Of a stretch of DNA of 64,000 nucleotides, positions 5,389 through 60,936 are shown piece by piece. A program made the position numbers and the translations under genes. Every line of letters begins with the position of its first letter. The first letter of the stretch is position 1. The notes beneath the pieces were generated by a model, which saw only the letters and a program-made list of their open reading frames with translations, had not been told where the DNA came from and made no database searches. The stretch is from positions 356,900-420,899 of the forward strand of contig CAVPPF010000007.1 in NCBI GenBank assembly GCA_963707435.1, read 5' to 3'. Origin of the DNA: an uncultured Actinomycetota bacterium. Lineage in GTDB: Bacteria; Actinomycetota; Acidimicrobiia; Spongiisociales; UBA4744.

Positions 5389-5391
5389 ACG

Positions 5392-5871: not shown

Positions 5872-5890
5872 CCGGGTGGCGGGAGGAGTC

Positions 5891-13301: not shown

Positions 13302-13317
13302 CCTTCCCATTCTTCCT

Positions 13318-14430: not shown

Positions 14431-14454
14431 AATTGAGGGGGAACAAGGAGCAAC

Positions 14455-15339: not shown

Positions 15340-15342
15340 AAC

Positions 15343-17071: not shown

Positions 17072-17205
17072 GCCGCCAGTATGGCCGATAGGGGAGCGGG
17101 ATGCCTGTGGTGAGCACCGATCGGCTCGTGAAGAACCACTCGTGCCATCCTGACGCCCCACAAAACCACGGTCCTGTCTCGCTCTCGCTCTACACTCCCG
17201 TACAT

Positions 17206-19282: not shown

Positions 19283-19301
19283 ACGCCTACCCTGCCCTGT
19301 T

Positions 19302-29633: not shown

Positions 29634-31176
29634 CGAATCCGGGTTGGCCCTCGCCACCGTGCTCGTCGCAATTCTGGTACTCACGCTGTTCACCACGCTC
29701 CTGTTGCGTGAAGCAATCACCCAACGCCAGCAGTCGGAGTTTCAGGCTCGCGAGGATGTCGTGGTGGCAGGCGCTGAGGCCATGCTCGAGCGGTACGCCG
29801 CCAAGCTGACCATCGATCCGCTCTACTTCATGCACTGGGTCGATGAGGGCGAACGGGCCAGGGTTTGTCAAACCGCGAGCTCAGCGGGGTTCGGTCAGCC
29901 GGCCGTGCAACCGGGGAACCCGTGGCCGTGGCCCGACTGTGAAGCGTGGACCTACGAGGATCCAGATCGCGACGGGGACGGCAATCCGGACACAGACTGG
30001 TATGTTCACCCAATTCTGGACGGTACGCTCGCTGCTGCGCGCGATGATATCGGCGTTCTCTTGGAGGTGTATCCACCTACCGGCCAGCCGCTCGAAGTCC
30101 TGGTGGTCGGCAAGCGAGGCGATTGGGTGCACCGCCGGGCAATCTCGGCCACCGTCAAAGCCACGTCGCTTTCGGAGTTCTACCGCGTGACGGAGAACGA
30201 CCTGTCGTATGGCTCGAATCGTGAGACCTGGGGCAAGGTCTACTCGGGGGGCGACGTGAGCTACGGGTCGAACGGAAAGGCTCATGCAGACGTGTTCGCT
30301 GAGGGCGACATCACCAACCCACCACAGTGGCTCGACGATGCCGAAGGTTGGGAGGGGACTCCGAGCGGCTCCTACAACGACATCCGCGACGCGTATCCGC
30401 AACCGCTCGACTTCAACGACTTCTGGGACGACCTGGACACACTCAAGTCTGCCGCGTGTTCGGGCGGTGGCCTCTGTTTGGACGACGCCGACGCCGACGG
30501 CTGGCGCATCCACCCGTACGTGACGGCTGCAGGCGAAGGGAAGCTCCGTGTCTGCAAATCGACGACCAACCAGACCGAAACCTGGTGGTGGACCAACGGC
30601 CAATCGTCGCAGTTCAACACGTGCAGTACCGAAGACATCCCTGCGAACGGCACGGTATGGACGAACGAGCATGTGGTCATCGGGGACCGCTCGTTCACGG
30701 GCGGATTCAACGACGATCGCCTCCTCGGCGACGGATTCAGTGAGGCAATCCTGCGCGGCTCGCTCACCATCTACGCGGGAACCGTGACGGACAAGAAGAA
30801 CGTCATTCTCAACGCCGACACCACCTACGACGATCCCAATTCGTTCGACGTCCTCGGCCTGATCGCCTCCGATGAAGTCATCATCAACAGTTACGCAACC
30901 GGTGCAGACAGGAAGTTCTACATCAGCGCCGCCTTGCTCGGCCAGTACGACAAGTGGCGGGCCGAGGGGAACGCCCCTTCGGGATCGACGTTGATCACCA
31001 GTGGTTCCATCGCGACCAGAAGCACAGGATCGATCTCGGGTGAGTTCCCGTACGCTCAATACGGTTTTGACGATCGGATGGAATTCGTCCGGCCACCCTT
31101 CTATCCGCTGCTCGTGAACGACTGGTCCTACCAGGACTGGACCGAGTTGCCGCTCCCGGCCTGGGCAACGCCGTAG
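29617..31176 (+). CDS. PilX-N-terminal-domain-like protein (minor pilin / pilus-associated)
   Basis: MRRLRNESGLALATVLVAILVLTLFTTLLLREAITQRQ fits the PilX_N pattern. It is followed by a 480 aa Cys- and Trp-containing extracellular region and overlaps the upstream gene by 17 nt. Confidence 0.5.
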   Translation: MRRLRNESGLALATVLVAILVLTLFTTLLLREAITQRQQSEFQAREDVVVAGAEAMLERYAAKLTIDPLYFMHWVDEGERARVCQTASSAGFGQPAVQPGNPWPWPDCEAWTYEDPDRDGDGNPDTDWYVHPILDGTLAAARDDIGVLLEVYPPTGQPLEVLVVGKRGDWVHRRAISATVKATSLSEFYRVTENDLSYGSNRETWGKVYSGGDVSYGSNGKAHADVFAEGDITNPPQWLDDAEGWEGTPSGSYNDIRDAYPQPLDFNDFWDDLDTLKSAACSGGGLCLDDADADGWRIHPYVTAAGEGKLRVCKSTTNQTETWWWTNGQSSQFNTCSTEDIPANGTVWTNEHVVIGDRSFTGGFNDDRLLGDGFSEAILRGSLTIYAGTVTDKKNVILNADTTYDDPNSFDVLGLIASDEVIINSYATGADRKFYISAALLGQYDKWRAEGNAPSGSTLITSGSIATRSTGSISGEFPYAQYGFDDRMEFVRPPFYPLLVNDWSYQDWTELPLPAWATP

Positions 31177-39501: not shown

Positions 39502-40586
39502 TGGTCGACGTTCCTCCCGAACCGCGAGGCGACGGTCTGCGGCGCGTCGGCGGCCTCGTGTTGCTGATCGTCATCCTCGGCGGCGCCTACCTGGGAGCCC
39601 GGGAGCTCGCCGACTGGGTCGGCGGGCTTGGTGGGATCTCCGACGTGACGGCACCGCCGGGTCTCGAGCCGGGACTGCCCGTCTCTGTGGAGATACCACC
39701 CGGCTCGGCCGCGCGTCAGATCGGAGTCCTTCTCGCCGAGGCGGGCGTTGTCGAGTCCGCCGGTCAGTTCGAGCTCGCCGTTCGCACGACCGAAACAGCA
39801 GAACGTCTCCAGGCAGGCCGCTACGACCTGGAGACCGGGATGGCGAACGACGTTGTCATCGACCTGTTGCTGCGCGGACCGATCATCGAGACCTTTCGCG
39901 TAACCGTACGCGAAGGCCTGTGGATCGGGGAGGTCCTCGACGAGATCGCCAGGCAGACCGATTTCGCCCGGACTGAACTGGAGCAGGCGCTGAGTACGGT
40001 GAACTCCTCACTGCTGCAGGGCCCCGCCTCCGACCCGATCTCTTGGGAAGGCCTGCTCTTCCCCGACACCTACGATTTCCCTCTCGACGCCGGGCCCGGG
40101 GACGTTCTCCAGCGGCTCGCCGACACCATGCAACAACGGGTCGCGGCGATCGACTGGTCCGAACTGGAATCGCGCGGACTCACGGTCTACGACGGGATCA
40201 TCATTGCATCGCTGATCGAAGCAGAAGCGGGCGTCGACGCCGACCGGCCGCTGATCGCGAGTGTGGTCGTCAACCGACTCGAGGCACCGATGGTGCTGGG
40301 CATCGACGCAACGGTGATCTACGCGCTGGGGGAGCGCGGCAAGTCGCTCACGGTTTCAGATCTCGACGTCGACTCACCGTACAACACCAGGAAGTTCCCC
40401 GGCCTCCCTCCGACCCCTATCGGCGGACCGGGGCGAGCTTCGCTCGAGGCAGCCGCATCCCCGGAAGACACCGACTTCCTCTACTACGTGCTGACCTCGG
40501 CAACCGGCGAGCATTCATTCACGGCCAGCTACGACGAGTTCCTCGCGTTCAAGCAGCAAGCCGTGGAGGACGGACTCATTCCCTGA
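39501..40586 (+). CDS. mltG: endolytic murein transglycosylase
   Basis: N-terminal TM then YceG-like domain: ..GLLFPDTYDF.., ..IIASLIEAEAG.., ..LGIDATVIYALGERGKSLTVSDLDVDSPYNTRKFPGLPPTPIGGPG. Confidence 0.85.
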   Translation: MVDVPPEPRGDGLRRVGGLVLLIVILGGAYLGARELADWVGGLGGISDVTAPPGLEPGLPVSVEIPPGSAARQIGVLLAEAGVVESAGQFELAVRTTETAERLQAGRYDLETGMANDVVIDLLLRGPIIETFRVTVREGLWIGEVLDEIARQTDFARTELEQALSTVNSSLLQGPASDPISWEGLLFPDTYDFPLDAGPGDVLQRLADTMQQRVAAIDWSELESRGLTVYDGIIIASLIEAEAGVDADRPLIASVVVNRLEAPMVLGIDATVIYALGERGKSLTVSDLDVDSPYNTRKFPGLPPTPIGGPGRASLEAAASPEDTDFLYYVLTSATGEHSFTASYDEFLAFKQQAVEDGLIP

Positions 40587-41395
40587 TGGCCGGCGACGTC
40601 GAACAGCATTGGGATCTGGTCCTGTTCGGTGATCCCGTCGACCACTCGTTGTCACCGGTGATCCAGCAGGCGGCTCTCGACGCGATCGGATTGGCGGGCA
40701 CCTACCGGGCCGTCCGCGTGGACGAGGCAGGCTTTCGACGCGGGTGCGCGGAGCTCCGGGAAGGGCGATGGCGCGGCGCCAACGTCACGATGCCCCACAA
40801 ACGGCTCGCCTGTGCCGAGGTGGACGCTCGAACCGATGAAGCAGGTCGCGCCGGGTCGGTCAACACCATTGTTGTCGACGGCGCGCGGTTGATCGGGCAC
40901 AGCACCGATATCGAAGGCATCCGCACAACCTGGGACGAAGCCGAACTTCCGGACCATGCTCCGGTGCTGGTGCTGGGCGCAGGCGGCGCAGCGGCGGCCG
41001 CCGTGATCGCCGCAGGCTCAACCGATGTGTTCCTCGCGGCCCGCCGCCTCGAGCTTGCCGCCGCTCTCGCTCGGGACGTGGACGTTGCCGTTCGCCCACT
41101 GCCGTGGGGAACGGCGGTTGCCGGAGCCGTCGTCGTCAACGCCACGCCGCTCGGCATGTCCGGCGAATCACTGCCACCCGGCATTGTGGAACAAGCCGCC
41201 GGATTGCTCGACATGGCATACGGACGCTCCACCACGCCTGCAGTGCAGACCGCCCGCAGCCGCGGAATTCCCCACGCGACCGGAACCGATCTCTTAGTGG
41301 CCCAGGCGGCGGCTTCGTTCACGCTCTGGACCGGCCGGGCAGCGCCGGTGGCGGCGATGCGGGCTGCGCTCCAAAAGGCTCAAGCGACAGGCTAG
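40586..41395 (+). CDS. aroE: shikimate dehydrogenase
   Basis: LFGDPVDHSLSPVIQQAAL (the AroE SxS motif), ..ANVTMPHK.., ..VLVLGAGGAAAAAV.. (Rossmann). Start at MAGDVE overlapping the mltG stop. The upstream ORF-track extension lies inside mltG and is rejected. Confidence 0.8.
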   Translation: MAGDVEQHWDLVLFGDPVDHSLSPVIQQAALDAIGLAGTYRAVRVDEAGFRRGCAELREGRWRGANVTMPHKRLACAEVDARTDEAGRAGSVNTIVVDGARLIGHSTDIEGIRTTWDEAELPDHAPVLVLGAGGAAAAAVIAAGSTDVFLAARRLELAAALARDVDVAVRPLPWGTAVAGAVVVNATPLGMSGESLPPGIVEQAAGLLDMAYGRSTTPAVQTARSRGIPHATGTDLLVAQAAASFTLWTGRAAPVAAMRAALQKAQATG

Positions 41396-41436: not shown

Positions 41437-42342
41437 ATGTCGCTAACCGGTGCCCTCGAGGCATTTCCGCTTCCCGAGGTACTTCGCCTCCTGGCGCGGT
41501 CGGAAAAGAGCGGGACGCTGAGAATTGACGCATCCGACCTGCAAGGTCGGATCTACCTCACAGATGGTTCGCTCAGCTACGCGACGACCCGCCGCGAGGA
41601 GGATCTGGTCGATGATCTTGTCGGAGCGGGTTTGATCGACTCCCAGGACTGGGTGCTGGTCGAGCGCCGCGAGAAGGACGTCGTCGAAGTTCTGGCCGCA
41701 GACGCCACCGAGCAGCAACTGACCGACCTCCTGGCCGACCAGATCGCCGATGTCATCTTTCGATTGATGCGCCGCAGCGACGGCGACTTCGAATTCTCGG
41801 AGTCCGTCGGCCCGCGCTACAACACGGGGATCAGCGTTGACATCGACGCCTCGATAGCCGAGGCGGAGAAACGAAACGCGCAGTGGTCGGAGATCGAGGA
41901 CGTGATCCCGGCGATCACGTTCCATCTGCGCATGGTTCCCGATCTCAACGACCGCAACGAGGTCTCCGTTCCGTCGACTACCTGGAGGGTGCTCGCCGCC
42001 CTGCAGGGTGAGGGAAGCATCGAAGAGGTAGCACGACGACTGGGAATGACCGACTTCGCCGTCGCGCAGATCATGGCCGGACTTGCCCGGGACGGTCTGC
42101 TCGAAATCGTCGATATGCCGCCACCCGCCGCCTACGGGTACGGTGACGTGCCCCAGGAACCACAGCAAGCCCCGGCGCCGCAACCGGAAGCTCCCGTCGA
42201 GGACGACCAGGATGACGAAATCCTTCTCGAATCGGCGTTGTCCGATGTCGTGGCACCCGAAGAGGATCCTGACGCTCCGGTGATCGCCCGCAGACGTGGC
42301 CTCGGCGCCCGTGTCCAGGAAGCTAAGGACGCCGGTGAGTAA
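41437..42342 (+). CDS. PATAN/DUF4388-domain protein with acidic Pro-rich C-terminal tail
   Basis: Start MSLTGAL after GGAGG. ..GALEAFPLPEVLRLLARSEKSGTLRIDASDLQGRIYLTDGSLSYATT fits the DUF4388/PATAN pattern. A winged-helix-like segment (..EEVARRLGMTDFAVAQIMAGLARDGLL) follows. Tail is PPPAAYGYGDVPQEPQQAPAPQPEAPVEDDQDDEILLESALSDVVAPEEDPDAP. Lies immediately upstream of pilB. Confidence 0.6.
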   Translation: MSLTGALEAFPLPEVLRLLARSEKSGTLRIDASDLQGRIYLTDGSLSYATTRREEDLVDDLVGAGLIDSQDWVLVERREKDVVEVLAADATEQQLTDLLADQIADVIFRLMRRSDGDFEFSESVGPRYNTGISVDIDASIAEAEKRNAQWSEIEDVIPAITFHLRMVPDLNDRNEVSVPSTTWRVLAALQGEGSIEEVARRLGMTDFAVAQIMAGLARDGLLEIVDMPPPAAYGYGDVPQEPQQAPAPQPEAPVEDDQDDEILLESALSDVVAPEEDPDAPVIARRRGLGARVQEAKDAGE

Positions 42343-42349
42343 TCGAGCC

Positions 42350-44032
42350 ATGGTCCAGCGGGATGCGGGACATCTCGGGACGCTCCTCCTCGAGGAGGGC
42401 ATCGTCACCGAGGAGACCCTCAAGAAGGGCCTCGATCTCCACCATGAGACCGGCCGTCCACTCGGACGCGTCCTCGTGGAAGAGAACCTGGTCGAAGAAC
42501 GCGACCTCGTCCGGGTACTCGCCAAGAACATCGGGATCGAATTCGTCGACCTGGACGAGGGTGCCGTCGACCCGGCCGCCGCAGCCCTGATCCCCGAAGC
42601 TCTGGCCAGGCGCTACGCCGCACTGCCCATCGGTTTTGAGGACGAGAAGCTCGTGATTGCGATGGCCGACCCGGCCAATGTGCTGGCGATCGACGACATC
42701 CGGGCGATCTCCGGGCGTGAGGTGATCCTCAAGGTAGCCACCCGCTCGGATGTGGAGGCTGCGGTATCCCGTCTTGCCTCGCTCGACAACTCTGTGACCG
42801 ATATGGCCGAGCTCGCCGCCGAGGACTCGGTTGAGGCGCATGATCTCAGCGCCGTTGAAGCGGCGGCGGATGAGGCGCCGGTCGTCAAGCTGGTCAACAT
42901 GCTGATTACCAGGGCAGCCGCCGACCGTGCTTCGGACATCCACATCGAACCAACCGAACGAGACCTCAGAGTCCGATTCCGGATCGACGGTGTACTCCAC
43001 GAGATCATGCGGACTCCCCGTTCGATCTCAAATGCGCTCGTCAGCCGGCTCAAGATCATGGCCGACATCGACATCGCCGAGCGGCGCCGTCCTCAGGACG
43101 GACGCATCAACCTGAAGGTCGGTGGCAAACAGCTCGACCTCCGCGTGTCGAGCCTGCCCACCATCTACGGCGAGAAAGTCGTAATGCGGCTGCTCGATAC
43201 CGGTACGGCACTGCTCGAGCTCAAGGATCTCGGATTCCTCGGTGAAAACGAGCGGCGCTACCAGGAATCGTTCAGCAAGCCGTACGGGACCATCCTGTGC
43301 GTCGGGCCGACCGGTTCCGGCAAGTCGACCACGCTCTATGCAACGCTCAACGTCCTCAACCGGCCGGAAGTGAACATCGTGACGATCGAGGACCCGGTCG
43401 AGTACCGGCTGCCGGGAATCAGCCAGGTCCAGGTGAACAAGAAGGCCGGCCTCAACTTCGCATCGGCCTTGCGCTCGTTCCTGCGCCAGGACCCGGACAT
43501 CATGCTGGTTGGTGAGATCCGTGACCAGGAGACGGCGAACATCGCCATTGAATCGGCGCTGACCGGCCACCTGGTTCTTTCCACGCTCCACACCAACAAT
43601 GCTCCCGCCAGTGTCAGCCGCTTGATCGAGATGGGGGTCGAACCGTTCCTGGTGGGCTCCGCCCTCGACGCAGTCTTGGCGCAGCGCCTCGCCCGACGGT
43701 TGTGCAGTCACTGCAAAGAGGAATACACCCCAACGGCGGAGGCGCTTCGGGAAGCCAACTTCCCCATGGAGGATCGCGATGAAGCGCCCAAGCTGCACCG
43801 GGCCGTTGGCTGCAAACACTGCGCAAATACCGGCTACCGGGGCCGGCTGGCAGTCCATGAGTTGATGACCGTGAACGAGGAGATCGAGTTGCTGACCGTT
43901 GAGCGAGCCGCCACCGAGAACCTGACGCGGGCGGCTATCGCCAACGGAATGCGGACCCTCAGACAGGACGGCATGGACAAGGTTGCCATGGGGCTCACCT
44001 CCATCGAGGAGATCATGCGGGTGATCATCTAG
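42350..44032 (+). CDS. pilB: type IV pilus assembly ATPase
   Basis: Two N-terminal GspE_N/MshEN-like repeats (..LGTLLLEEGIVTEETLKKGL.., ..PLGRVLVEENLVEERDLVRVL..), a T2SSE_N domain, Walker A VGPTGSGKSTT, Asp/His boxes and the tetracysteine CSHC...CKHC. Confidence 0.88.
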   Translation: MVQRDAGHLGTLLLEEGIVTEETLKKGLDLHHETGRPLGRVLVEENLVEERDLVRVLAKNIGIEFVDLDEGAVDPAAAALIPEALARRYAALPIGFEDEKLVIAMADPANVLAIDDIRAISGREVILKVATRSDVEAAVSRLASLDNSVTDMAELAAEDSVEAHDLSAVEAAADEAPVVKLVNMLITRAAADRASDIHIEPTERDLRVRFRIDGVLHEIMRTPRSISNALVSRLKIMADIDIAERRRPQDGRINLKVGGKQLDLRVSSLPTIYGEKVVMRLLDTGTALLELKDLGFLGENERRYQESFSKPYGTILCVGPTGSGKSTTLYATLNVLNRPEVNIVTIEDPVEYRLPGISQVQVNKKAGLNFASALRSFLRQDPDIMLVGEIRDQETANIAIESALTGHLVLSTLHTNNAPASVSRLIEMGVEPFLVGSALDAVLAQRLARRLCSHCKEEYTPTAEALREANFPMEDRDEAPKLHRAVGCKHCANTGYRGRLAVHELMTVNEEIELLTVERAATENLTRAAIANGMRTLRQDGMDKVAMGLTSIEEIMRVII

Positions 44033-44138
44033 CGGAGCGGCCGGGACCGGGCGGGCCGCGGAAACCTTCAAGCCGGAGCGATCCGGTGCCGAAACTCAAG
44101 TGAGGCAGATCGCCTCGAAGGGAAACTGGAAGAGAGCA

Positions 44139-45704
44139 ATGAACACAGCATCACGCAGACTCGGTGAGCTCCTGGTTGATCGCAGGTTGCTGTCCAAGGA
44201 CAGCCTGGAAGGCCTCCTGGAGAAGGAAACCGCGACCGGCGTTCCCATTGCCAAGCTCCTCATCGATGGCGGGCACGTCCGCGAGGAAGACTTGCTCCGA
44301 GCCGTTGCCGACCGGGTCGGCATGCTGTACATAGATCTCGACGATGCGCTGCTCGATCCGGAAGCCGTCGGCATGATCGACGCCGACGCCGCCAGGCAGC
44401 TCATGGTCATACCCGTCCGCACGGAAGACGAGAAGGTCGTCGTCGCCGTAGCGGATCCCTTCGACCCGGAGACCCACGTGCGTCTCGAGAAGACGCTCGG
44501 AGTAGGTGTCACCCTCGCCCTGGCCACCCGGGCGGCTATCGGCAGAGCCATCGATTTCGTCCACGGTGCCGAACAGGTTCCGCTCGTCCGCCAACCCGGA
44601 ATGCCGGCGCAGGAGGGGACGATCAGCGAACCCGAGACCTTGCATCTCAACGAACTCCTCGGCATTCAGCTCGATCGCGGCGGATCCGACCTGCACCTCA
44701 CCGCCGGCTCCCACCCGCAGATCCGGGTGCACGGAAAACTAGAACGACTGAGCGACTTTCCGATCATGAAACCGGCCGAGTTGCGCCGCATGATCTACAG
44801 CATTCTCACCGAGAAACAGCGGGAGAAGCTCGAAGAAACCCTGGAACTCGACGCTTCCCATCCGGTGCCCGGACGTGGCCGTTTTCGCATGAACGTGTAC
44901 TTTCAGCGCGATTCGATCGGCGCCGCCTTTCGAGCCATTCCGACCGACATCATGTCGCTCCAGCAGCTGGGGATCCCACCGTCGGTCGGTGAGCTGGCCG
45001 ATTTGCAGCGCGGCCTGGTGCTGGTCACCGGTCCTACCGGGTCCGGCAAGTCGACGACCCTGGCGGCTCTCATCGACATGGTGAACAGCAAGCGTTCGTG
45101 CCACATCCTGACCGTCGAGGATCCAATCGAGTTCCTCCACGTGCACAAGCAGGCAATCGTCAACCAACGCGAGGTTGGGGCGGACACGCTCGGCTTCGGC
45201 CCCGCCTTGAAACACGCCCTACGGCAGGACCCCGACGTGATCCTGGTAGGTGAGTTGCGGGACCTCGAGACCATCTCGACCGCTCTGACGGCTGCAGAGA
45301 CCGGTCACCTCGTGTTCGCAACGTTGCACACGCAGGATGCACCGCAGACGATCGACCGGATTGTCGACGTATTTCCTTCACACCAGCAGCAACAGGTGCG
45401 GGTCCAGCTCGCCTCGACCATCCAGGCCATCATGACGCAGCAACTCGTGCCGCTGCGGACCGGCAAGGGTCGGGTCCCGGCAGTCGAGGTGATGGTTGCC
45501 ACGTCTGGGATCCGGAACCTCATCCGGGAATCAAAGAACCATCAGATCACCACAGCGATGCAAGCCGGTGGCAAACACGGCATGCAGACCATGGATCAGG
45601 CTCTGGCAGACCTGGTTCGCCGCAATCTCATCTCGTACGCGGTAGCCGTGGAACGCTGCATGAACCTGGAGGATTTCCAAAGGCTCGCGGGCCGGATGGC
45701 ATAG
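44139..45704 (+). CDS. pilT: PilT-type twitching/retraction ATPase with about 150 aa N-terminal GspE_N-like extension
   Basis: Core: TGPTGSGKSTTLAAL, GIRNLIRESK (PilT AIRNLIRE motif), ..PSHQQQQVRVQLASTIQAIMTQQL... N-terminus: RRLGELLVDRRLLSKDSLEGLLEKE (MshEN-like) then ..LLRAVADRVGMLYIDLDDALLDPEAVGMIDADAARQLMVIPVRTEDEKVVVAVADPFDPE.. (T2SSE_N-like). Start at MNTASRRLGEL after GAAGAGAG; 13 codons upstream are rejected. Confidence 0.82.
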   Translation: MNTASRRLGELLVDRRLLSKDSLEGLLEKETATGVPIAKLLIDGGHVREEDLLRAVADRVGMLYIDLDDALLDPEAVGMIDADAARQLMVIPVRTEDEKVVVAVADPFDPETHVRLEKTLGVGVTLALATRAAIGRAIDFVHGAEQVPLVRQPGMPAQEGTISEPETLHLNELLGIQLDRGGSDLHLTAGSHPQIRVHGKLERLSDFPIMKPAELRRMIYSILTEKQREKLEETLELDASHPVPGRGRFRMNVYFQRDSIGAAFRAIPTDIMSLQQLGIPPSVGELADLQRGLVLVTGPTGSGKSTTLAALIDMVNSKRSCHILTVEDPIEFLHVHKQAIVNQREVGADTLGFGPALKHALRQDPDVILVGELRDLETISTALTAAETGHLVFATLHTQDAPQTIDRIVDVFPSHQQQQVRVQLASTIQAIMTQQLVPLRTGKGRVPAVEVMVATSGIRNLIRESKNHQITTAMQAGGKHGMQTMDQALADLVRRNLISYAVAVERCMNLEDFQRLAGRMA

Positions 45705-45717
45705 GAGGACCGGACAC

Positions 45718-46941
45718 ATGGCGACATCAACGTTCACCTACAAGGTCAAGGACAAGACGGGCAAGCTGCACGACGGCGAGATGCAGGCTTCGTCCCAGTC
45801 GGCCGTGGCCAAGGCGCTGCGTGAGCGCGGGTTTGTGCCGGTTGCGGTGGAGGAGAAGAAGGCTTCGACGCTCCAGATGGAGATCAAGATCCCCGGTCTG
45901 TCCGGTCGGGTGAAGGTCAAGGAGGTCTCGGTCTTCAGCCGCCAGTTCGCCACCATGATCAACTCGGGCCTCTCGCTGCTGCGTTCCCTGACCATCCTGG
46001 CCGAACAGACGCCGAACCGTGCTTTCCGAGACATCATTCTCGAGGTCAAATCCGACGTGGAGAAGGGGTCGTCGCTTTCCCAGGCTCTGGAGAAGCACCC
46101 GAAAGTATTCCCCAGGCTCTATTCCTCCATGGTGAAGTCGGGTGAGGTTGGTGGTGTTCTGGACGAGACGCTCGAGCGATTGGCGCTGACGCTCGAGGCG
46201 CAGGTCGAACTCCGGTCTCAGGTCAAGTCGGCCATGATGTACCCGGCTGCGGTTTTCGGGTTGGTCATCTTCATCGTCATCGCCATGCTGCTGTTCGTCG
46301 TGCCGATGTTCGAATCGATGTTTGCCGACTTCGGAGCGGAACTTCCGCTCCCGACCCGGATGCTCATGTCGCTTTCGGTAATCTTCACTACGTACTGGTA
46401 CGTTGCCATTGGTGGCACGGTCGCGGCGATCTACGGCTTCAAGCGGTGGATCGCCACCGATCGCGGTCGCAGCAGGTTCGACGCCATCAAGCTGAAAATG
46501 CCCATTTTCGGCAAACTGGTCCACAAAACTGCGCTGGCCCGTTTCTCGCATACCCTGGCCGCCCTGACCCGGACCGGTGTTCCCATTCTGATGGCGATGG
46601 ATATCGTGGCCGAAACCTCCGGCAATGCCGTGGTTGCCCGGGCCGTGCACAGCGTGCAGGCCTCGGTGAAAGAGGGAGAGTCGATCGCCGAACCGCTCTC
46701 GAACCATCCTGTGTTCCCGCCGATGGTCGTGCAGATGATGGCCGTCGGGGAGGAGACGGGCGCGCTCGACACGATGTTGGAGAAGGTCGGCGATTTCTTC
46801 GACCGGGAGGTCAAGACGATGGTCGAAGGTCTTACCAGCCTCATCGAGCCTCTCCTGGTCGTGATCCTGGGTGCCACCGTCGGCGGCATGCTGCTGGCGC
46901 TCTACCTGCCCATCTTCAACGTCATCACGCTGATCGACTAA
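45718..46941 (+). CDS. pilC: type IV pilus platform protein (GspF family)
   Basis: Duplicated T2SSF domains (..SRQFATMINSGLSLLRSLTIL.., ..LARFSHTLAALTRTGVPILMAMD..) and three TM blocks. AGGAGG RBS. Confidence 0.88.
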   Translation: MATSTFTYKVKDKTGKLHDGEMQASSQSAVAKALRERGFVPVAVEEKKASTLQMEIKIPGLSGRVKVKEVSVFSRQFATMINSGLSLLRSLTILAEQTPNRAFRDIILEVKSDVEKGSSLSQALEKHPKVFPRLYSSMVKSGEVGGVLDETLERLALTLEAQVELRSQVKSAMMYPAAVFGLVIFIVIAMLLFVVPMFESMFADFGAELPLPTRMLMSLSVIFTTYWYVAIGGTVAAIYGFKRWIATDRGRSRFDAIKLKMPIFGKLVHKTALARFSHTLAALTRTGVPILMAMDIVAETSGNAVVARAVHSVQASVKEGESIAEPLSNHPVFPPMVVQMMAVGEETGALDTMLEKVGDFFDREVKTMVEGLTSLIEPLLVVILGATVGGMLLALYLPIFNVITLID

Positions 46942-47079
46942 CGACCGGTCGACGCACTAGTCACTTCCGGCGCAGATGAATAGGCAGCAAGTAGCGAATT
47001 GCCGCTCAACTCTCGGCCACGTAGGGCCGATATCTACTGATGAGGGCCGAACGCCGGCTCTCTCCAAAGGAGGAATCTC

Positions 47080-47532
47080 ATGATTCGTTGGATCAACAGC
47101 CGACTCGGAAACGAGGAAGGCTTTACGTTGGTCGAGTTGATGGTGGTCGTATTGATCATTGCCATTCTTGTGGCGATCGCCATCCCGACCTTCCTCGGTG
47201 CTCGTACCAGTGCCCAGGACCGGGCCGCTCAGAGCGACCTGCGCAACGCCCTGACCGCCGAGAAGGTGTTCTACGTGGACAACGAGGCGTACAGCGACAA
47301 CGGCGCAGGCGAGCTGGCTGCCATCGAGCCGAGCATCGACTGGGCCGCCGTCACCGTGACCCTGAACGCCCTGGACGACCAGGATGTCTGCTTGGAGCTG
47401 ACGTCGGCCAGCGGCACCGTGTTCGTACTCAAGGACATTGCGTCCGGCGCCAACGGTGGTGCCCCGGGTACCTATTACGGCACCGTCAACTGCGCTGGCG
47501 CAGTAGCGACCACAGCGGACGCCGGCTGGTAA
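47080..47532 (+). CDS. pilA: type IVa major pilin
   Basis: MIRWINSRLGNEEG|FTLVELMVVVLIIAILVAIAIPTFLGAR is a textbook class III leader plus N-methyl-Phe/Glu5 helix. C-terminal Cys pair (..DVCLELTS..GTVNCAG..). AAAGGAGGAATCTC RBS. Confidence 0.87.
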   Translation: MIRWINSRLGNEEGFTLVELMVVVLIIAILVAIAIPTFLGARTSAQDRAAQSDLRNALTAEKVFYVDNEAYSDNGAGELAAIEPSIDWAAVTVTLNALDDQDVCLELTSASGTVFVLKDIASGANGGAPGTYYGTVNCAGAVATTADAGW

Positions 47533-47554
47533 ACAAACCCATCGACCGAGACCT

Positions 47555-47584
47555 CGAGAGGGCGGCCCGTAGGCCGCCCTCTCG
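47555..47584 (+). terminator. 13-bp perfect GC-rich hairpin 22 nt after the pilA stop (likely terminator/attenuator)
   Basis: CGAGAGGGCGGCC-cgta-GGCCGCCCTCTCG, every base paired. It is followed by GUAUGU, a weak U-tract, so it could also be a processing or stability hairpin. Confidence 0.6.
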
Positions 47585-47640
47585 GTATGTCCGGAGATCC
47601 CGGCGGAGCCCGCTAACGTGCTACGCCCGGGAGAGGAGCT

Positions 47641-48411
47641 ATGACCGCATACTTCGCCACGGTGGCCGGCCTGTTCGGGCTGCTCATCGGTTCTTTCTTG
47701 AACGTGGTCGCGTACCGGGTGCCGCTCGGTCGATCTGTCGTGTCGCCTCCCTCGGCGTGCCCGGCGTGTGGGCGCCCGATCCGCCCGCGTGACAACATCC
47801 CGGTGCTGTCCTGGCTACTGCTGCGCGGGAAGTGTCGCCAGTGCGGTGCTGCGATCTCGCCCCGCTATCCGATCGTCGAGGCCGCAACGGGGATCCTGTT
47901 CGCCGGAACCTATCTGGTGATCGGTGCCGTATGGGTTCTGCCCGCCTACCTGCTCTTCGTGGGAACAACCGTGGCGCTCATCCTGACGGACCTCGACCAC
48001 AAGCGGATCCCGAATCGCATTCTGTACCCGGCCACCGTGGCCGCCGTGTTCCTGCTGGCCCTCGGAGCCGCCGCCGATGGGAGGCTGGACGCAGTGCCGC
48101 GCGCCCTGGCGGGTGGTGCGATCTACTTTGGAATACTCCTCCTGATAGCCCTGGCCGCCCGCGGTGGGTTTGGCATGGGTGATGTCAAGCTGGCCTTCCT
48201 GCTCGGGACGTTCCTGGCTTTCGACTCCTGGGCGACCCTGTGGGCCGGGGTCTTCCTGGCCTTTCTCATCGGCGGCGGGGTGTCGCTGCTGCTCCTGGTC
48301 ACGAGACGGAAGGGCCGGAAGGATGCCATCCCGTTCGGTCCTCCACTCATGGTCGGGGCGTGGATCGCGGTGGTTTGGGGCCGGCAACTCGTCGATTGGT
48401 ATATGGGATAG
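47641..48411 (+). CDS. pilD: prepilin peptidase (A24 family)
   Basis: Zinc-finger N-terminus CPACGRPIRPRDNIPVLSWLLLRGKCRQCG, and catalytic Asp regions (..LILTDLDHKRIPN.., ..GMGDVKLAFLLG..). GGAGAGGAG RBS. Confidence 0.88.
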   Translation: MTAYFATVAGLFGLLIGSFLNVVAYRVPLGRSVVSPPSACPACGRPIRPRDNIPVLSWLLLRGKCRQCGAAISPRYPIVEAATGILFAGTYLVIGAVWVLPAYLLFVGTTVALILTDLDHKRIPNRILYPATVAAVFLLALGAAADGRLDAVPRALAGGAIYFGILLLIALAARGGFGMGDVKLAFLLGTFLAFDSWATLWAGVFLAFLIGGGVSLLLLVTRRKGRKDAIPFGPPLMVGAWIAVVWGRQLVDWYMG

Positions 48412-48570
48412 GCCAAACTCGACTTCTGTCGGCAGGCCCGGTGCTTGCGGCCGTTCGAACGCATTGTTACGCTCGTGTAATCACATCGTTGTAATTAGCG
48501 GTGTGGTGGTGGTCGAGCTGGGCCACGCGGGGGGAACCGGTCACAGAGGCCGGCCCAGGGCGGAGACAAC

Positions 48571-49641
48571 ATGGCGATCAACGTCGGGTTGGACATAGGC
48601 ACGAGCGCTGTTCGTGCGGCTGTTGTACAGACGGGCAAAGGGGTGCCCGTCTTACAGCGTTATGGGCAGGTGGCGCTCCCCGAAGGCGCCGTCGTCGCCG
48701 GCGAGATCGTGGAGGAAGCGATCGTCCGTGACGCCCTCATCCAACTCTGGAAAACCGCCAAGTTGCCGAAGAAGCGAGTCGTTGTCGGCATTGCCAATCA
48801 ACGAGTGATCGTACGGAGAGTCGATCTGCCCTACATGGCCGAGGACGAGCTCGCTCAGGCGCTCCCGTTCCAAGCCCAGGAGTTCATCCCGATACCGATC
48901 GACGAAGCGATTCTCGACTTTGTCCCGCTCGAAGAGTTCGCAACTCCCAACGGTGAGCCGATGCTTTCGGTCCTCGTGGTCGCCGCGCACAAAGACATGG
49001 CGGCCGATGTCCTGCGGGTCGTCGGAGATGCCGGGGTCAAGGTCATGGCCATCGATCTGCAGGCTTTCGCCCTGTCTCGTTCCGTCCTCGGCGCCGATTT
49101 CGATCTCGACTCGGGGGTTCAGGCGATCGTCAATATCGGCGCGGGCCTGACCCAGGTGATCCTCTTGAAGGCCGGGACCATCAGATTCCTCAGGATCCTG
49201 ACCATGGGAGGGGCCACGTTCACCGAGGCCCTGGCGGACCGTATGCCGATGGAACCGGAGCAGGCAGAGCAATACAAGCGCCGGACCGGCGTGGCCATCG
49301 ACGGTGTTCCTACGGGGACAGAAGGCGAGGGTCTTGCCAAAGTCGTGCTGACCGAAGAGGCCGATCTCCTCATCGAAGAGATCCGCGGCTCGGTGGACTA
49401 CTACCTGGGCCAATCGGGCAGCGACACCCTCGAGCGACTGTACGTGGCAGGCAACGGGGCCCGGCTCCCCAATCTTGCCAACCGTCTGGGTCGCGCGCTC
49501 GGCGTTGGTGTGGAACCAGTTCGGGTTCTCGACGATGAGAAGATGCAGGTCGGCAAACTCGGGTTGAGTGATGTCGAGCTGGCCCAGGCTCAGCCGGTCC
49601 TTCCGGTGCCGGTCGGGCTGGCGATGTGGGGCGAACTGTGA
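48571..49641 (+). CDS. pilM: type IV pilus assembly protein (actin-like ATPase fold)
   Basis: VGLDIGTSAVRAAVV..., ..VAGNGARLPNLANRL.. are the PilM/FtsA-like fold. Confidence 0.85.
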   Translation: MAINVGLDIGTSAVRAAVVQTGKGVPVLQRYGQVALPEGAVVAGEIVEEAIVRDALIQLWKTAKLPKKRVVVGIANQRVIVRRVDLPYMAEDELAQALPFQAQEFIPIPIDEAILDFVPLEEFATPNGEPMLSVLVVAAHKDMAADVLRVVGDAGVKVMAIDLQAFALSRSVLGADFDLDSGVQAIVNIGAGLTQVILLKAGTIRFLRILTMGGATFTEALADRMPMEPEQAEQYKRRTGVAIDGVPTGTEGEGLAKVVLTEEADLLIEEIRGSVDYYLGQSGSDTLERLYVAGNGARLPNLANRLGRALGVGVEPVRVLDDEKMQVGKLGLSDVELAQAQPVLPVPVGLAMWGEL

Positions 49642-50261
49642 TGCGTACGATCAACCTTCTCCCCCCGGAAGCAGCTCAGCGGGCCACCGCCCGGCGCAAA
49701 ACGTTCGGGTTCTTGGCGCTGGGGCTTGCCTACATTGCGCTGCTGGTGCTGGTTGCCATGTGGTGGCAGGGCAAAGCCAACGATGCGGAAGATGATCTTG
49801 CCGCCCAGCTCACCGCCAACGCCCGGATCGAGGCGGACATCGCCTCCCTGGCGGGGGTCCGGACCCTTCGCTCCACCTACGACGACGGTGTGACGAGGCT
49901 CGGCACCGCGCTGGCCAGGGACATCGCCTGGGGACGGCTGCTGAACGACCTGGCTCGCATCATCCCTGATCGCCTCTGGCTCACGAGCCTGACCGGGAAT
50001 CTTCAAAGCGACGACGAGAACCCGCTCCTGCTCGGCCAGGTTGCCGTTTCCGGAGTTGCTTTCGATTACCCGGATGCTTCATCGTGGCTGCGCGTGCTCG
50101 ATGCCGAGGAGTGGCCGGCGCTGGGCGGCGGGTGGGTCTCATCGACCAGCCGTTCGACCATCGGGGAGTCCCCGGTGGTCAACTTCACGTCGGTTGCCTC
50201 GCTCCTGGACGCTGCTCGTTCAAACCGGGTCGAAGAGCGAACCCCGGAGGTTCCGTCATGA
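49641..50261 (+). CDS. pilN: type IV pilus assembly protein
   Basis: MRTINLLPPE (the PilN INLLP motif) then a single TM and coiled coil. TGATG overlap with pilM. Confidence 0.8.
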   Translation: MRTINLLPPEAAQRATARRKTFGFLALGLAYIALLVLVAMWWQGKANDAEDDLAAQLTANARIEADIASLAGVRTLRSTYDDGVTRLGTALARDIAWGRLLNDLARIIPDRLWLTSLTGNLQSDDENPLLLGQVAVSGVAFDYPDASSWLRVLDAEEWPALGGGWVSSTSRSTIGESPVVNFTSVASLLDAARSNRVEERTPEVPS

Positions 50262-50869
50262 AGCGCACCGGTTTGATCATGGGCCTGCTGGGCCTGGGGC
50301 TGGTCACGGCCCTCTGGTACTTTTTTGTGATCTCCCCGACGAACACGAAGATCGCCGATGCGCAAGATCAGCTTGCAGCCGCGGAGGACAACCAGGTGCT
50401 GCTGCAAACCCAGCTCATGCGCCTCAAGAAGATTCAGGAGAACGAGCTTACCTACCGGTCGGCGATCGGTGCGCTCGAGGCCGCGATCCCGCCCACGCCG
50501 CAGATGCCTGCATTGATCGACGACCTGGCTCAACTGGCGGTCGACTCGGGCGTTGAATGGGAGAGCGGCACGTACGGGAACCCGGTTGAGGTGGAAGGGG
50601 AGGATTACTACGAGATTCCGGTCAACCTCTCCGTGCAGGGCCAGTTCTTCGAAGTGCTCGGGTACTTGTACGGGATCGCCGATATGGAACGGATCGTCCG
50701 CATCGACGCAGTGAGTCTCTCTCCCACGGAAGACGATGCCGGTTTCACGATCGAGAACGTTTCGATTTCCGCAGTCACCTTCACGACCGGCGATGTCGTG
50801 CTGCCGGTGCCCGAAGAACCCGCCGAGACCACGACCACGACCACGACGACCCCCGGGGACGGTGAGTGA
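50258..50869 (+). CDS. pilO: type IV pilus assembly protein
   Basis: MKRTGLIMGLLGLGLVTALWYFFV, coiled coil (..AQDQLAAAEDNQVLLQTQLMRLKK..), ferredoxin-like C-domain and a poly-Thr tail ETTTTTTTTPGDGE. ATGA overlap with pilN. Confidence 0.7.
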   Translation: MKRTGLIMGLLGLGLVTALWYFFVISPTNTKIADAQDQLAAAEDNQVLLQTQLMRLKKIQENELTYRSAIGALEAAIPPTPQMPALIDDLAQLAVDSGVEWESGTYGNPVEVEGEDYYEIPVNLSVQGQFFEVLGYLYGIADMERIVRIDAVSLSPTEDDAGFTIENVSISAVTFTTGDVVLPVPEEPAETTTTTTTTPGDGE

Positions 50870-51375
50870 TGCGAGCGAAGAACAGCGGCACCGCCGCGGC
50901 GGTAGCCATTCTCCTGATCGGCCTGGCGGTAGCCGGCGCCTGGATGGTTGTTGCTCCTTCCGTGTTCGGTTCGAACGACACGGTGTTGGACGGTCCGCTC
51001 GCCGAGTCGACCTTGGCGGCACCGGCCGGATCCGAGCTGATCGAGGGTGTGAAAGTGCTGAGCTCTTTCCAGGTATCACAGCCTCGTGACCCGTTTCGGC
51101 CGCTGATCACCGAAGACTCGACGACGGGAACCACCGGCGACGGAACCGGCACCGGTTTTGATCCGTCCGGGATCCGGGTGACCCTCGTCGAGATCAGGGA
51201 CGTTGCCGGTGTCCTGCGAGCCACCGTCAAGGTCGACGGCACCGACTACGACGTCGGCGTGGGTGATACCTTCGCGAGCAACTTCAAAGTGGTCAGTCTC
51301 GATCCCGACAGTGGCGTCTTCCTCTACGGCGACAACGCGTTCGAGCTGTCCGAAGGCCAGGAGATTCTGAAGTAG
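50866..51375 (+). CDS. PilP-like pilus assembly protein (N-terminal TM anchor, RDPF motif)
   Basis: AAVAILLIGLAVAGAWMVV anchor, then ..SQPRDPFRPLIT.. (the RDPF motif I associate with PilP) and a beta-rich C-domain. GTGA overlap with pilO. Confidence 0.5.
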   Translation: MMRAKNSGTAAAVAILLIGLAVAGAWMVVAPSVFGSNDTVLDGPLAESTLAAPAGSELIEGVKVLSSFQVSQPRDPFRPLITEDSTTGTTGDGTGTGFDPSGIRVTLVEIRDVAGVLRATVKVDGTDYDVGVGDTFASNFKVVSLDPDSGVFLYGDNAFELSEGQEILK

Positions 51376-51415: not shown

Positions 51416-52567
51416 ATGTTGCGTTTCCTCACAGCCGGCGAGTCGCACGGCCCCGGCCTGGTCACCATCGTCGAAGGCCTCCCGGCCGGACTCGATATCA
51501 CCGTTGAAGGGCTGGCCGATCAGCTGCGGAGGCGCCGTTTGGGGTTCGGTCGCGGCCGCCGCATGAAGATCGAGCAAGATGAGTTGGAGATTCTCGGCGG
51601 CGTTCGCCACGGGCGCACCCTGGGGAGCCCCCTGGCGGTTGTGATTCGCAACAGCGAGTGGGCGAAGTGGACCGAGGAGATGTCGCCGGGGGCGGGCCAC
51701 CCGAAGCGCCGGATGACGACACCTCGCCCGGGCCACGCGGATCTGGCCGGGATGCTCAAGTACGACACGTACGACGCTCGTGACATCCTGGAGCGGGCAT
51801 CTGCCCGGGAAACGGCCGCCAGAACCGTTGCCGGGTACGCGGCCCGGCAACTGCTCGCTCAGGTTGACATTTCGGTGCTGAGCCATGTCGTTGCCATCGG
51901 ACCTCTGACCGTGGCCGCCGGGACCACTCCCGGTCCCGACGACCTCGACATCATCGATGCGTCGCCGGTGCGAGTCTTCGATCGGGACATCGAAGACGCC
52001 ATGACATCGGCCATCGAGCAGGCCAAAGCCGACCGGGACACACTCGGCGGGGTGGTCGAAGTCCTGGCCTTTGGAGTACCGCCCGGCCTCGGCAGCCACG
52101 TCCACTGGGACCGGCGTCTCGATACCCGGCTCGCCGGTGCGCTCATGTCGATCCAGGGCATCAAGGCCGTCGAGATGGGTGACGGTTTTGCCTCGGCCTC
52201 CCGGCCGGGTTCGGAAGCCCACGATGAGATCGGTTTTGTCGACGGTCGATTCGTTCGGTCTTCGGATCGGGCGGGTGGCCTGGAGGGTGGAATCTCCACC
52301 GGACAGACGCTGCGGATGCGGGCCGCCATGAAGCCCATCTCAACGCTCATGCGGCCGCTGCAGAGCGTCAACGTCGAGAACAAGGAACCTGCCGCTGCCT
52401 TTCGGGAGCGTTCAGATGTATGTGCGGTCCCGGCCGCCGGTGTGGTGGCCGAGCAGATGGCGGCCTACATCCTGGCGGATGAGGTGGTGCGCACGTTCGG
52501 TGGGAACACGGTCGAGGATCTGGTCGCAGCCACCGACGCCTATCGAAGACGCCTGCTGGAATTCTGA
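51416..52567 (+). CDS. aroC: chorismate synthase
   Basis: MLRFLTAGESHGPGLVTIVEGLPAGL...GRSSARETAARV. Confidence 0.92.
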   Translation: MLRFLTAGESHGPGLVTIVEGLPAGLDITVEGLADQLRRRRLGFGRGRRMKIEQDELEILGGVRHGRTLGSPLAVVIRNSEWAKWTEEMSPGAGHPKRRMTTPRPGHADLAGMLKYDTYDARDILERASARETAARTVAGYAARQLLAQVDISVLSHVVAIGPLTVAAGTTPGPDDLDIIDASPVRVFDRDIEDAMTSAIEQAKADRDTLGGVVEVLAFGVPPGLGSHVHWDRRLDTRLAGALMSIQGIKAVEMGDGFASASRPGSEAHDEIGFVDGRFVRSSDRAGGLEGGISTGQTLRMRAAMKPISTLMRPLQSVNVENKEPAAAFRERSDVCAVPAAGVVAEQMAAYILADEVVRTFGGNTVEDLVAATDAYRRRLLEF

Positions 52568-60709: not shown

Positions 60710-60936
60710 TCAAACCACCCATCGAAGACGTCGTCGAGGTGACGGGCGGCCGATTCGACCTGGTCGTCGTCGCGGCCCGCCGCGCCCGCCAGATCAACGC
60801 CTATTTCAATCAGCTCGGGGAAGGTATCGGCCACTACGTGCCGCCTCAGGTCCACTCGTTGAGTCACAAGCCGCTCACGATTGCCTTGGAGGAGATCGCC
60901 CAGGGCAAGGTGACGGTCGAGCGCGTCGAAGAGTAG
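60706..60936 (+). CDS. rpoZ: DNA-directed RNA polymerase subunit omega
   Basis: A 76 aa protein: ..GGRFDLVVVAARRARQINA. ATGA overlap with gmk. Confidence 0.8.
   Translation: MIKPPIEDVVEVTGGRFDLVVVAARRARQINAYFNQLGEGIGHYVPPQVHSLSHKPLTIALEEIAQGKVTVERVEE

Follow-up and report, generated by a model that had tools for sequence, protein, structure and literature searches.

The subject of this analysis is a block of ten plus-strand genes that fill positions 41437-51375, between aroE and aroC, of a 64,000-nucleotide stretch of DNA (contig CAVPPF010000007.1, from an uncultured actinobacterium; the whole stretch is called the window hereafter), and that encode the machinery of a type IVa pilus (T4aP). 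With a probability of roughly 0.8, we read these genes as belonging to a vertically inherited, functional and retractile T4aP of single-membrane Acidimicrobiia, encoded at two conserved sites, from which the secretin gene pilQ has been lost. All ten open reading frames (ORFs) are intact with their catalytic and signature motifs, the same cluster occupies the same site in distant relatives, and the pilus proteins diverge in proportion to the housekeeping proteins. The host is known as a metagenome-assembled genome (MAG) of the Acidimicrobiia, the closest relatives of which by chorismate synthase (AroC), in a scan of species-representative genomes, are Acidimicrobiia MAGs at 81-89% identity; the actinobacterial backbone proposed in the initial annotation, which was made from the letters and their translated ORFs, is thereby borne out. 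The data for the host comprise the 64-kb window, and the results on the locus are drawn from its genes.

The pilus genes and the machine they encode

The genes of the cluster and the two that bound it are as follows:

40586..41395, + strand: aroE (shikimate dehydrogenase), the upstream boundary; Shikimate_dh_N 79 bits, SDH_C 45.8 bits (Pfam)
41437..42342, + strand: PATAN (DUF4388/PatA_N) protein, 301 aa; DUF4388 70.9 bits (Pfam)
42350..44032, + strand: PilB extension ATPase, 560 aa; T2SSE 468.5 and MshEN 77.2 bits (Pfam); tetracysteine CSHC...CKHC
44139..45704, + strand: long PilT retraction ATPase, 521 aa; T2SSE 153.9 and MshEN 60.5 bits (Pfam); GIRNLIRE
45718..46941, + strand: PilC platform protein, 407 aa; T2SSF 223.9 bits, in two stretches (Pfam)
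47080..47532, + strand: major pilin PilA, 150 aa; N_methyl 29.8 bits (Pfam)
47641..48411, + strand: PilD prepilin peptidase / N-methyltransferase, 256 aa; A24_N_bact 120.7 and Peptidase_A24 51.7 bits (Pfam)
48571..49641, + strand: PilM, actin-like cytoplasmic assembly protein, 356 aa; PilM_2 152.9 bits (Pfam); TIGR01175 188 bits vs 133
49641..50261, + strand: PilN, 206 aa; PilN 38.7 bits (Pfam); INLLP; its start overlaps the pilM stop (-1 nt)
50258..50869, + strand: PilO, 203 aa; PilO 65.5 bits (Pfam); Thr/Pro-rich C-terminal tail; overlaps pilN by 4 nt
50869..51375, + strand: putative cryptic PilP homolog, 168 aa; predicted HR fold and RDPFRPLI motif; overlaps the pilO stop
51416..52567, + strand: aroC (chorismate synthase), the downstream boundary, followed by aroK, aroB, efp and nusB; Chorismate_synt 374.7 bits (Pfam)

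The profile scan proposed in the initial annotation placed nine of the ten proteins above Pfam/NCBIfam cut-offs (all nine pass in Pfam, and PilT by TIGR01420 and PilM by TIGR01175 in NCBIfam as well) and left the tenth without a match. The ten co-directional T4aP genes are confirmed by ORFs, Pfam and NCBIfam, and every motif quoted for them is present in the translations (G|FTLVE; CSHC...CKHC in PilB; GIRNLIRE in PilT; INLLP in PilN; RDPF in the tenth protein). The description of ten genes for the T4aP core applies to nine of them; the first encodes a PATAN/DUF4388 protein with a winged helix-turn-helix (wHTH)-like segment, which is not structural. Spacers of 41 nt (aroE to the PATAN gene) and 40 nt (PilP homolog to aroC) separate the block from its neighbours, and the junctions inside it measure, in order, 7, 106, 13, 138, 108, 159, -1, -4 and -1 nt. 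The description "mostly translationally coupled" is hence about half true, coupling being real at pilM/N/O/P and nearly attained at PATAN/pilB and pilT/pilC, with 106-159 nt at the four other junctions. Scans for promoters and terminators gave site numbers no higher than in shuffled sequence, so the operon structure is read from gene spacing, and the Rfam scan of the whole window, being empty, revealed no riboswitch upstream of the pilus genes.

By all the defining parts that are applicable to a monoderm, the system is, as judged from its genes, a T4aP: it possesses a PilB-type ATPase, a dedicated PilT, a single PilC with two T2SSF repeats, PilM-PilN-PilO, a class III pilin with a bifunctional A24 peptidase, and a minor-pilin set, PilQ with its pilotin (a diderm part only) being the element that is lacking. 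Three other members of the filament superfamily were considered and rejected. The models of a Com (ComG) pilus score below their cut-offs (ComGA 257.7, below 300; ComGB 147.9, below 240; ComGC 34.2, below 75), and PilT and PilMNO are present; the same holds for a type II secretion system (GspE 610.6, below 630.25; GspF 388.5, below 424; GspG 43.2, below 88.85), for which no secretin was found and PilT is again present. A Tad pilus would require TadA, TadB/C, TadZ and a Flp pilin of ~50 aa, in place of which a PilB-type ATPase, a single PilC, PilT and PilMNO are encoded. The absence of PilQ noted in the initial annotation was upheld for the 64-kb window and 17 related Acidimicrobiia loci, none of which gave a tblastn match better than E=0.45 to PilQ of the NC10/Methylomirabilota locus L040 or to E. 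coli HofQ. Genome-wide surveys have noted T4aP in monoderm phyla, including Actinobacteria (PMC6668835, PMC6916266); no paper on the pili of Acidimicrobiia was found in the literature.

The tenth protein deserves closer attention. No Pfam model (PF04351, PilP, included) or NCBIfam model matched it at E<=1 bar a faint T2SSB match (E=0.02), a profile search against the sequences of the PDB returned nothing relevant, and among its 281 homologs the 120 listed are nameless or designated "hypothetical protein". An alignment of 39 homologs displays an N-terminal hydrophobic helix without a lipobox Cys, the segment SQPRDPFRPLI (invariant throughout), a Gly/Thr-rich linker and then a conserved C-terminal domain of ~65 residues. 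In the structural model, the helix spans residues 6-33, the N-terminal region contains no Cys, and the predicted fold is that of the PilP/GspC HR domain, with GspC-HR as the best structural match. The PilP of locus L040, which Pfam supports, has the identical octapeptide RDPFRPLI; from this shared motif and the predicted HR fold, the tenth protein is concluded to be a true but cryptic protein of the PilP/GspC type with a GspC-style membrane-helix anchor. The earlier label "PilP-like protein with RDPF" accordingly stands by predicted fold and motif, and finds no support from a PilP profile hidden Markov model (HMM). Neither the lipoprotein anchor of the PilP family nor a secretin partner for the protein was found. 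The monoderm model S. sanguinis is reported to have no PilP, which has been called logical since PilP links to the secretin (PMC6916266), and a membrane-anchored PilP homolog without a secretin is thus mildly unexpected. Neisseria PilP is nonetheless among the eight proteins sufficient for fibre assembly (PMC10191384), and this minimal set fits, by analogy, a secretin-independent role of PilP in stabilising PilN-PilO.

With regard to the motors, the best NCBIfam model for PilB is TIGR02538 (PilB), its 644 bits falling just under the equivalog cut-off of 675.65, and PilB also scores 610.6 bits on the GspE model TIGR02533, below the cut-off of 630.25. PilT attains 469.8 bits on TIGR01420 (PilT/PilU family) vs a cut-off of 319.1, and the best NCBIfam matches of PilC are PilC equivalogs, below their cut-offs. 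The build of PilT is unusual in that a PilB-type MshEN domain (residues ~1-140) is fused to the PilT core (~168-510). Its first 138 residues are collinear with the PilB N-terminus (33% identity over 132 aa, gapless), of which this domain is, on sequence comparison, a paralog. The MshEN motif consists of two 24-residue RLGxxhhxxGhhxxxxLxxxLxxQ units with a 5-residue spacer (PMC5013675). The 24+5+24 spacing is correct in both PilB and PilT, with 9/11 and 10/11 relaxed positions matched in the two halves for PilB and 9/11 and 9/11 for PilT, and some of the key Gly, Arg and Gln positions carry substitutions. On the c-di-GMP (cyclic diguanylate) motif domain NF053729, the PilB N-terminus passes with 54.1 bits vs the cut-off of 38, and that of PilT falls just below it at 35.7 bits.

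The long form of PilT is kept in the distant relatives L082-L084, and in alignments with PilT homologs from clostridia and plasmids the match begins only at residue ~164-181. Among the best 150 of 55,151 PilT-family matches, obtained from 1.84 billion representatives, about eleven share the full-length architecture and many bear other N-terminal extensions; the long PilT representatives among the matches listed bear no informative names. Long forms of PilT are not unique. In many PilT-family representatives, the N-terminus is extended at length (total sizes of 480-1099 aa; two matched stretches in some), and PilT proteins with added regulatory domains seem to be common in metagenomes, annotated simply as PilT. 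Published accounts that were found place MshEN only on extension ATPases of the PilB/MshE type; the 2016 survey of the domain makes no mention of PilT (PMC5013675), and no description of MshEN-type control of PilT was met with in those accounts.

A second candidate for motor control is the PATAN protein, which bears, besides DUF4388, a weak MarR-like wHTH (MarR_2 23.1 bits, below the cut-off) and an acidic, Pro-rich tail. In Synechocystis, a PATAN domain binds PilB1's N-terminus as well as PilC's N-terminal domain (bioRxiv 10.1101/2021.06.11.447907), and the protein encoded here is, by analogy, a candidate regulator predicted to bind the PilB N-terminus and PilC. Since MshEN is found in both PilB and PilT, and since the Synechocystis PATAN domain binds the PilB N-terminus and PilC, control of both motors via their MshEN domains, by c-di-GMP and/or the PATAN protein, is a reasonable hypothesis; either could act directly on retraction as well as on extension.

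The major pilin PilA has a 14-residue leader, the signal G|FTLVE, a mature length of 136 aa and a C-terminal Cys pair (Cys104/Cys138), and PilD carries two CxxC motifs together with GxGDxK, the latter being also found in all related loci scored. PilA is the most variable gene among close relatives, at 61-97% identity vs ~90-98% for PilB, PilT, PilC and PilM, and a variable pilin with conserved machinery is a pattern typical of an exposed fibre that would be functional. PilA is 61% identical in L001 and 97% identical in L002, both genomes being otherwise equally close (AroC 89%), which suggests pilin allele exchange or diversifying selection.

The cluster is "complete", as initially described, with respect to the core set only, in that three prepilin-like genes sit 10-14 kb upstream. 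A motif scan detected two further class III signal peptides there, in a three-gene minor-pilin operon (27289-31176) located between relA and MBL hydrolase-hisS-aspS:

27289..28941, + strand: modular minor pilin, 550 aa; G|FTLVE; N_methyl 21.6 and CarboxypepD_reg 34.7 bits (Pfam)
28938..29633, + strand: minor pilin, 231 aa; G|LTLTE class III signal; N_methyl 20.2 bits, slightly under the cut-off of 21.2 (Pfam)
29617..31176, + strand: 519-aa protein, third gene of the operon; hydrophobic pilin-like N-terminus without Glu5 (PilX/GspK-like); no Pfam match

In its AlphaFold2 model, the 550-aa pilin, for which 20 homologs exist, begins with a pilin helix and sheet and continues in tandem beta-sandwich domains. 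Its Foldseek matches are tandem immunoglobulin-like (Ig-like) surface adhesins and sortase pilins, with low TM-scores that speak for the type of domain only; with its predicted Ig-like/CnaB-like domains, it is probably an adhesin. The 231-aa gene overlaps the preceding one by 4 nt and has an ortholog with a weak N_methyl match in L085, and the 519-aa protein, inferred to be a minor pilin, corresponds to a 512-aa ortholog at the same position in L085. This relative, in which the pilin is 41% identical, has the same three minor-pilin genes at the same site, and the pilus is thus a conserved two-locus system. The set numbers three genes, two of them with G|F/L-T-L-x-E signals, vs four to five plus PilY1 in the diderm models.

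Ancestry of the locus and its linkage to aro genes

Synteny maps made with tblastn revealed the same ten genes, in the same order and against aroC, in L001-L004 and L007, and the PilP homolog lies directly 5' of aroC on the short contig L045. The loci L082-L084, picked via divergent PilP-like homologs (52-62% identical), carry the ordered cluster followed by aroC-aroK-aroB-efp-nusB-pyrR, with AroC 58-69% identical to that of the window. The PATAN gene heads the cluster in L001-L004, L007, L082 and L083, and the contig of L084 starts at pilB. PilB, PilT, PilC and PilM are 90-98% identical where AroC is 82-89% and AroK 59-71% identical; at the sequence level, the machinery appears to be under strong purifying selection. 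As a side observation, pilC and pilM are called as split genes in L082 (4156-5376 and 8049-8914; frameshifts or long-read errors), and aroK and aroB as one 504-aa fusion of SKI and DHQ synthase (12043-13557). Two homologs of Acidimicrobiia-specific pilus proteins (P0038 and P0136) are labelled "Gammaproteobacteria bacterium" in NCBI MAG records, apparently because an Acidimicrobiia contig was mis-binned or mislabelled.

Eight further Acidimicrobiia loci (L006, L008, L009, L011-L014 and L075) lack pilB, pilT, pilC, pilA and pilMNOP. Their aroE-aroC interval holds the PATAN gene and a prepilin peptidase gene in 6/8 and the peptidase gene only in 2/8, with GxGDxK intact in the peptidases of all eight; in these loci (at about 7000-10000 in each), the PATAN/DUF4388 protein, where present, measures 365-400 aa and the A24 peptidase ~240 aa. 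The peptidase may serve Tad pili there, or a pilus encoded elsewhere. Genomes with the full cluster and those with a reduced locus are interleaved in a neighbour-joining tree of AroC, AroB and EF-P, which bears no support values. The locus is read, from these comparisons, as ancestral in the class and repeatedly reduced to the PATAN gene plus pilD. The alternative put forward in the initial annotation, a lineage-specific insertion, is contradicted by the presence of the same cluster at the same site in Acidimicrobiia with AroC at 58-69% identity, by co-divergence and by flank-like GC content at third codon positions (GC3). Occurrence of the cluster at this position in relatives, which the initial annotation itself had named as evidence against an insertion, was looked for and found.

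The linkage of pilus and aro genes extends well beyond the class. In the NC10 locus L040, the order PilX_N-pilM-pilN-pilO-pilP-pilQ (the last a secretin with AMIN domains) is followed by aroC, and E. coli K-12 has hofMNOPQ-aroK-aroB. Eight clostridial loci have pilT/pilB/pilC genes downstream of aroC-aroK-aroB, either directly after aroB (L033, L049) or 3-6 kb further on (L054, L064, L065, L070); aroE precedes aroC in L033, L049, L054, L064, L065 and L070, and no aroE match was obtained in L017 and L047. A clostridial linkage, mentioned in the initial annotation with due caution, has thus been verified by these eight loci and reaches into diderms, and no published statement of it was found in the literature. 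In the Desulfitobacterium locus L065, pilM-N-O lies upstream of aroE without a PilP homolog, with a sigma factor gene after pilO. The whole segment (936-19300) reads pilM-N-O, sigma factor, FIST-GGDEF-EAL protein, FMN reductase, HAD hydrolase, aroE-aroC-aroK-aroB and pilB-pilT-pilC, and a c-di-GMP enzyme is thus embedded in a pilus-aro locus. As for other Actinobacteria, a literature search for an A24 peptidase gene adjoining aroC yielded nothing usable; in Streptomyces and Corynebacterium, a prepilin peptidase gene may lie next to aroC.

An ancient pilus-aro linkage is the better reading than an insertion, and the pilM-N-O-P and aroC-K-B genes of the window would represent, by gene order, the widespread pilMNOPQ-aro arrangement without pilQ. 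Such a pilQ-less arrangement fits the repeated loss of the secretin inferred for monoderm T4aP (PMC6668835). Possibly the locus is, at the level of synteny, a fossil left by the loss of the outer membrane, in which only pilQ was lost from a pilMNOPQ-aro operon; PilP may have survived, become re-anchored by a membrane helix and diverged past recognition by HMMs. Were this true, PilP would belong intrinsically to a monoderm's inner-membrane assembly complex. This reading, and as a second, independent possibility the MshEN-based control of both extension and retraction, is speculative and somewhat on the doubtful side.

The window as a whole is a housekeeping backbone throughout. To the left of the cluster lies thrS ... 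pdxST-yebC-ruvC ... ruvB-queA-tgt-yajC-secDF-apt-relA ... hisS-aspS-rarA-alaS-ruvX-mltG-aroE, and to the right aroCKB-efp-nusB-pyrRBCDF-gmk ... coaBC, the Pfam scan having covered all but the stretches at 17.7-18.3 kb (ruvC-ruvB) and 60706-60936 (gmk-coaBC). The flanks alaS-ruvX-mltG-aroE and aroC-aroK-aroB-efp-nusB-pyrR are as initially described, and we take the gene order of the window to match one conserved in actinobacteria. In alaS (36469-39091), an essential gene, a one-base shift near 37770-37784 leaves two overlapping frames; an intact alaS of 871 aa exists in L085, and the shift probably stems from faulty assembly or sequencing and does not mark a pseudogene. Elsewhere in the window, two tandem citrate synthase paralogs were noted on the minus strand (5891-8580), as well as a lipid A-type acyltransferase and GT4 glycosyltransferase pair on the plus strand (11317-13301), which looks like a phosphatidylinositol-mannoside acyltransferase/PimA pair and fits an actinobacterial envelope.

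Proposed mechanism and rival explanations

In the mechanism we propose, PilD would cleave and methylate the G|F prepilins, and PilB, acting on PilC and the PilM-PilN-PilO complex, would polymerise PilA from the membrane. The three minor pilins would prime and cap the fibre, the 550-aa modular one with its Ig-like stalk probably serving as an adhesin. Depolymerisation by PilT would render the pilus retractile, for surface attachment, twitching and possibly DNA uptake. A secretin should not be needed, as the fibre would cross the cell wall only. For the membrane-anchored PilP homolog, the likeliest role is to stabilise PilN-PilO by way of the RDPFRPLI segment; the secretin to which the HR domain binds in diderms would be missing as a partner here. 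Both motors are probably regulated at their N-terminal MshEN domains, by c-di-GMP, by the PATAN protein or by both. In evolutionary terms, a pilMNOPQ-aro locus would have lost pilQ, and several Acidimicrobiia lineages would have been further reduced to PATAN plus PilD.

Two rivals concern the history of the locus. Horizontal acquisition of an accessory, lineage-specific insertion between aroE and aroC would account for the eight loci without pilB, pilT, pilC, pilA and pilMNOP and for the slight dip in GC content across the cluster (0.61-0.64 vs 0.65-0.67 in the flanks), but those very loci still have, at exactly this place between the two aro genes, the PATAN gene and/or pilD, and a gain was rejected because it would take two exact insertions, one separating PATAN from pilD and one behind pilD, and these repeatedly. 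Against it also stand the identical order and position of the cluster down to AroC identities of 58-69%, the co-divergence of pilus and housekeeping proteins, a GC3 equal to that of the flanks (0.76-0.83 in the cluster vs 0.77-0.84) and the occurrence of pilus-aro linkage in other phyla. No tRNA genes or Rfam elements exist in the whole window, no flanking repeats at the cluster, and no close plasmid relative was found, the best plasmid match being ~51% identical and confined to the PilT core; integrase genes were not searched for, and the end gaps of 40-41 nt leave no room for one. An insertion is consequently considered improbable, and a genomic island was rejected on the same grounds of GC3, tRNA genes, repeats and position in distant relatives, likewise without a search for integrase genes. 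The locus might, conversely, be a decaying, non-functional remnant on its way to the PATAN-plus-PilD state, as its repeated reduction in related lineages and the split calls of pilC and pilM in L082 would allow. This is scarcely credible for ten window ORFs that are intact with catalytic and signature motifs, in a machinery of which PilB, PilT, PilC and PilM are conserved as much as or more than AroC, AroK and AroB.

The remaining rivals concern function. Retractile T4aP mediate DNA uptake in many bacteria, monoderms included (PMC6370729), PilT is present, and E. coli has, at its equivalent pilMNOPQ-aroKB site, orthologs with the annotation of DNA utilization proteins, so that a pilus primarily for competence, rather than for adhesion or motility, must be given fair consideration. 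We hold it to be unlikely, though by no means negligible: no comEA, comEC or dprA occurs among the Pfam-scanned genes of the window, the large modular pilin is similar to adhesins in its Ig-like domains, and the highly variable major pilin fits a surface-exposed fibre under diversifying selection; DNA uptake and adhesion or motility are, besides, not mutually exclusive. A pseudopilus acting as a type II secretion-like piston, which would export proteins across the wall, is very improbable. PilB scores nearly as well on GspE (TIGR02533) as on PilB, GspC-HR is the best structural match of the tenth protein, and a T4P-associated secretion role is proposed for one C. perfringens gene set (bioRxiv 10.1101/2024.11.04.621531); yet a dedicated PilT together with PilM, PilN and PilO are hallmarks of T4aP, the C-terminal Cys pair of the pilin is typical of T4a pilins, and the cluster holds no GspL, GspM, GspD or secreted-substrate genes.

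Several points tell against a vertically inherited, functional and retractile T4aP and hold our confidence in it at its present level. Expression, piliation and retraction are all deduced from homology, and the single-membrane envelope is assumed from taxonomy. PilB and PilC score under their NCBIfam equivalog cut-offs, and PilT has degenerate c-di-GMP motifs (two mismatches per half). Should the reduced genomes form one clade, contrary to the neighbour-joining tree without support values, the number of losses required would drop and the case against a gain would be weakened. The alaS frameshift, 3.6 kb upstream, makes local assembly errors possible in the contig. Finally, the genome outside the 64 kb could possibly encode a secretin, competence genes or another pilus system.

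Comparison with known systems

Acidimicrobiia are widespread in environmental metagenomes, where a compact T4aP probably shapes attachment, movement or DNA uptake. The locus offers a natural experiment as to what PilP does without a secretin, and as to whether the deep pilus-aro linkage records the loss of the secretin in a two-to-one-membrane transition; the MshEN-PilT fusion, in turn, suggests a route for direct c-di-GMP control of retraction.

The closest counterparts are the T4aP of Firmicutes (S. sanguinis, C. perfringens and C. difficile), which likewise operate in a single membrane without a secretin or pilotin and from clustered genes, and which share PilB/PilC/PilD/PilM/PilN/PilO as well as PilT, a long leader on the pilin, a small number of minor pilins and modular pilins bearing grafted domains (PMC6916266). 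With clostridial systems the cluster has in common the physical linkage of pilus genes to aro genes. It differs from the Firmicutes systems in its actinobacterial host, in the PilP homolog after pilO, in the PATAN gene at its head, and, with respect to the short clostridial PilT, in the MshEN domain carried by PilT.

Diderm T4aP (Pseudomonas, Neisseria, Myxococcus, Thermus; hofMNOPQ of E. coli) possess the same core set, and the order pilM-N-O-P ending against aro genes is that of L040 and E. coli. The HR fold with RDPFRPLI in the PilP homolog, the tetracysteine of PilB and the IRNLIRE of PilT are also shared. Unlike these systems, no PilQ, PilF/PilW or TsaP was found here, the PilP homolog is predicted to be anchored by a helix and not by lipid and goes unrecognised by PF04351, and there are three minor-pilin genes without PilY1, the genes being gathered in two loci rather than scattered.

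As in the c-di-GMP receptors of the MshE/PilB type (V. cholerae MshE, C. perfringens PilB2, M. xanthus PilB), both motors start with the motif of 2x24 residues and a 5-residue spacer; in contrast to them, MshEN is here also fused to PilT, its key residues are partly substituted, and c-di-GMP binding is a prediction. The PATAN/DUF4388 protein resembles the PATAN regulators of cyanobacteria and myxobacteria in being encoded with pilus motor genes, and differs from those of the PatA type in having no receiver domain, with a weak wHTH-like segment and an acidic tail instead.

Last of all, the Tad/Flp (type IVc) pili of B. breve and M. luteus belong to the same phylum and filament superfamily and depend equally on a prepilin peptidase (PMC6916266), but are of a different subtype, with a Flp pilin of ~50 aa vs the mature pilin of 136 aa encoded here. 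Experimental work on type IV pili in Actinobacteria has dealt with the Tad type only. Set against all of these, the locus specifies a known machine with three variant features, namely a PilP homolog without a secretin, an MshEN-PilT fusion and a gene order in which PATAN comes first.

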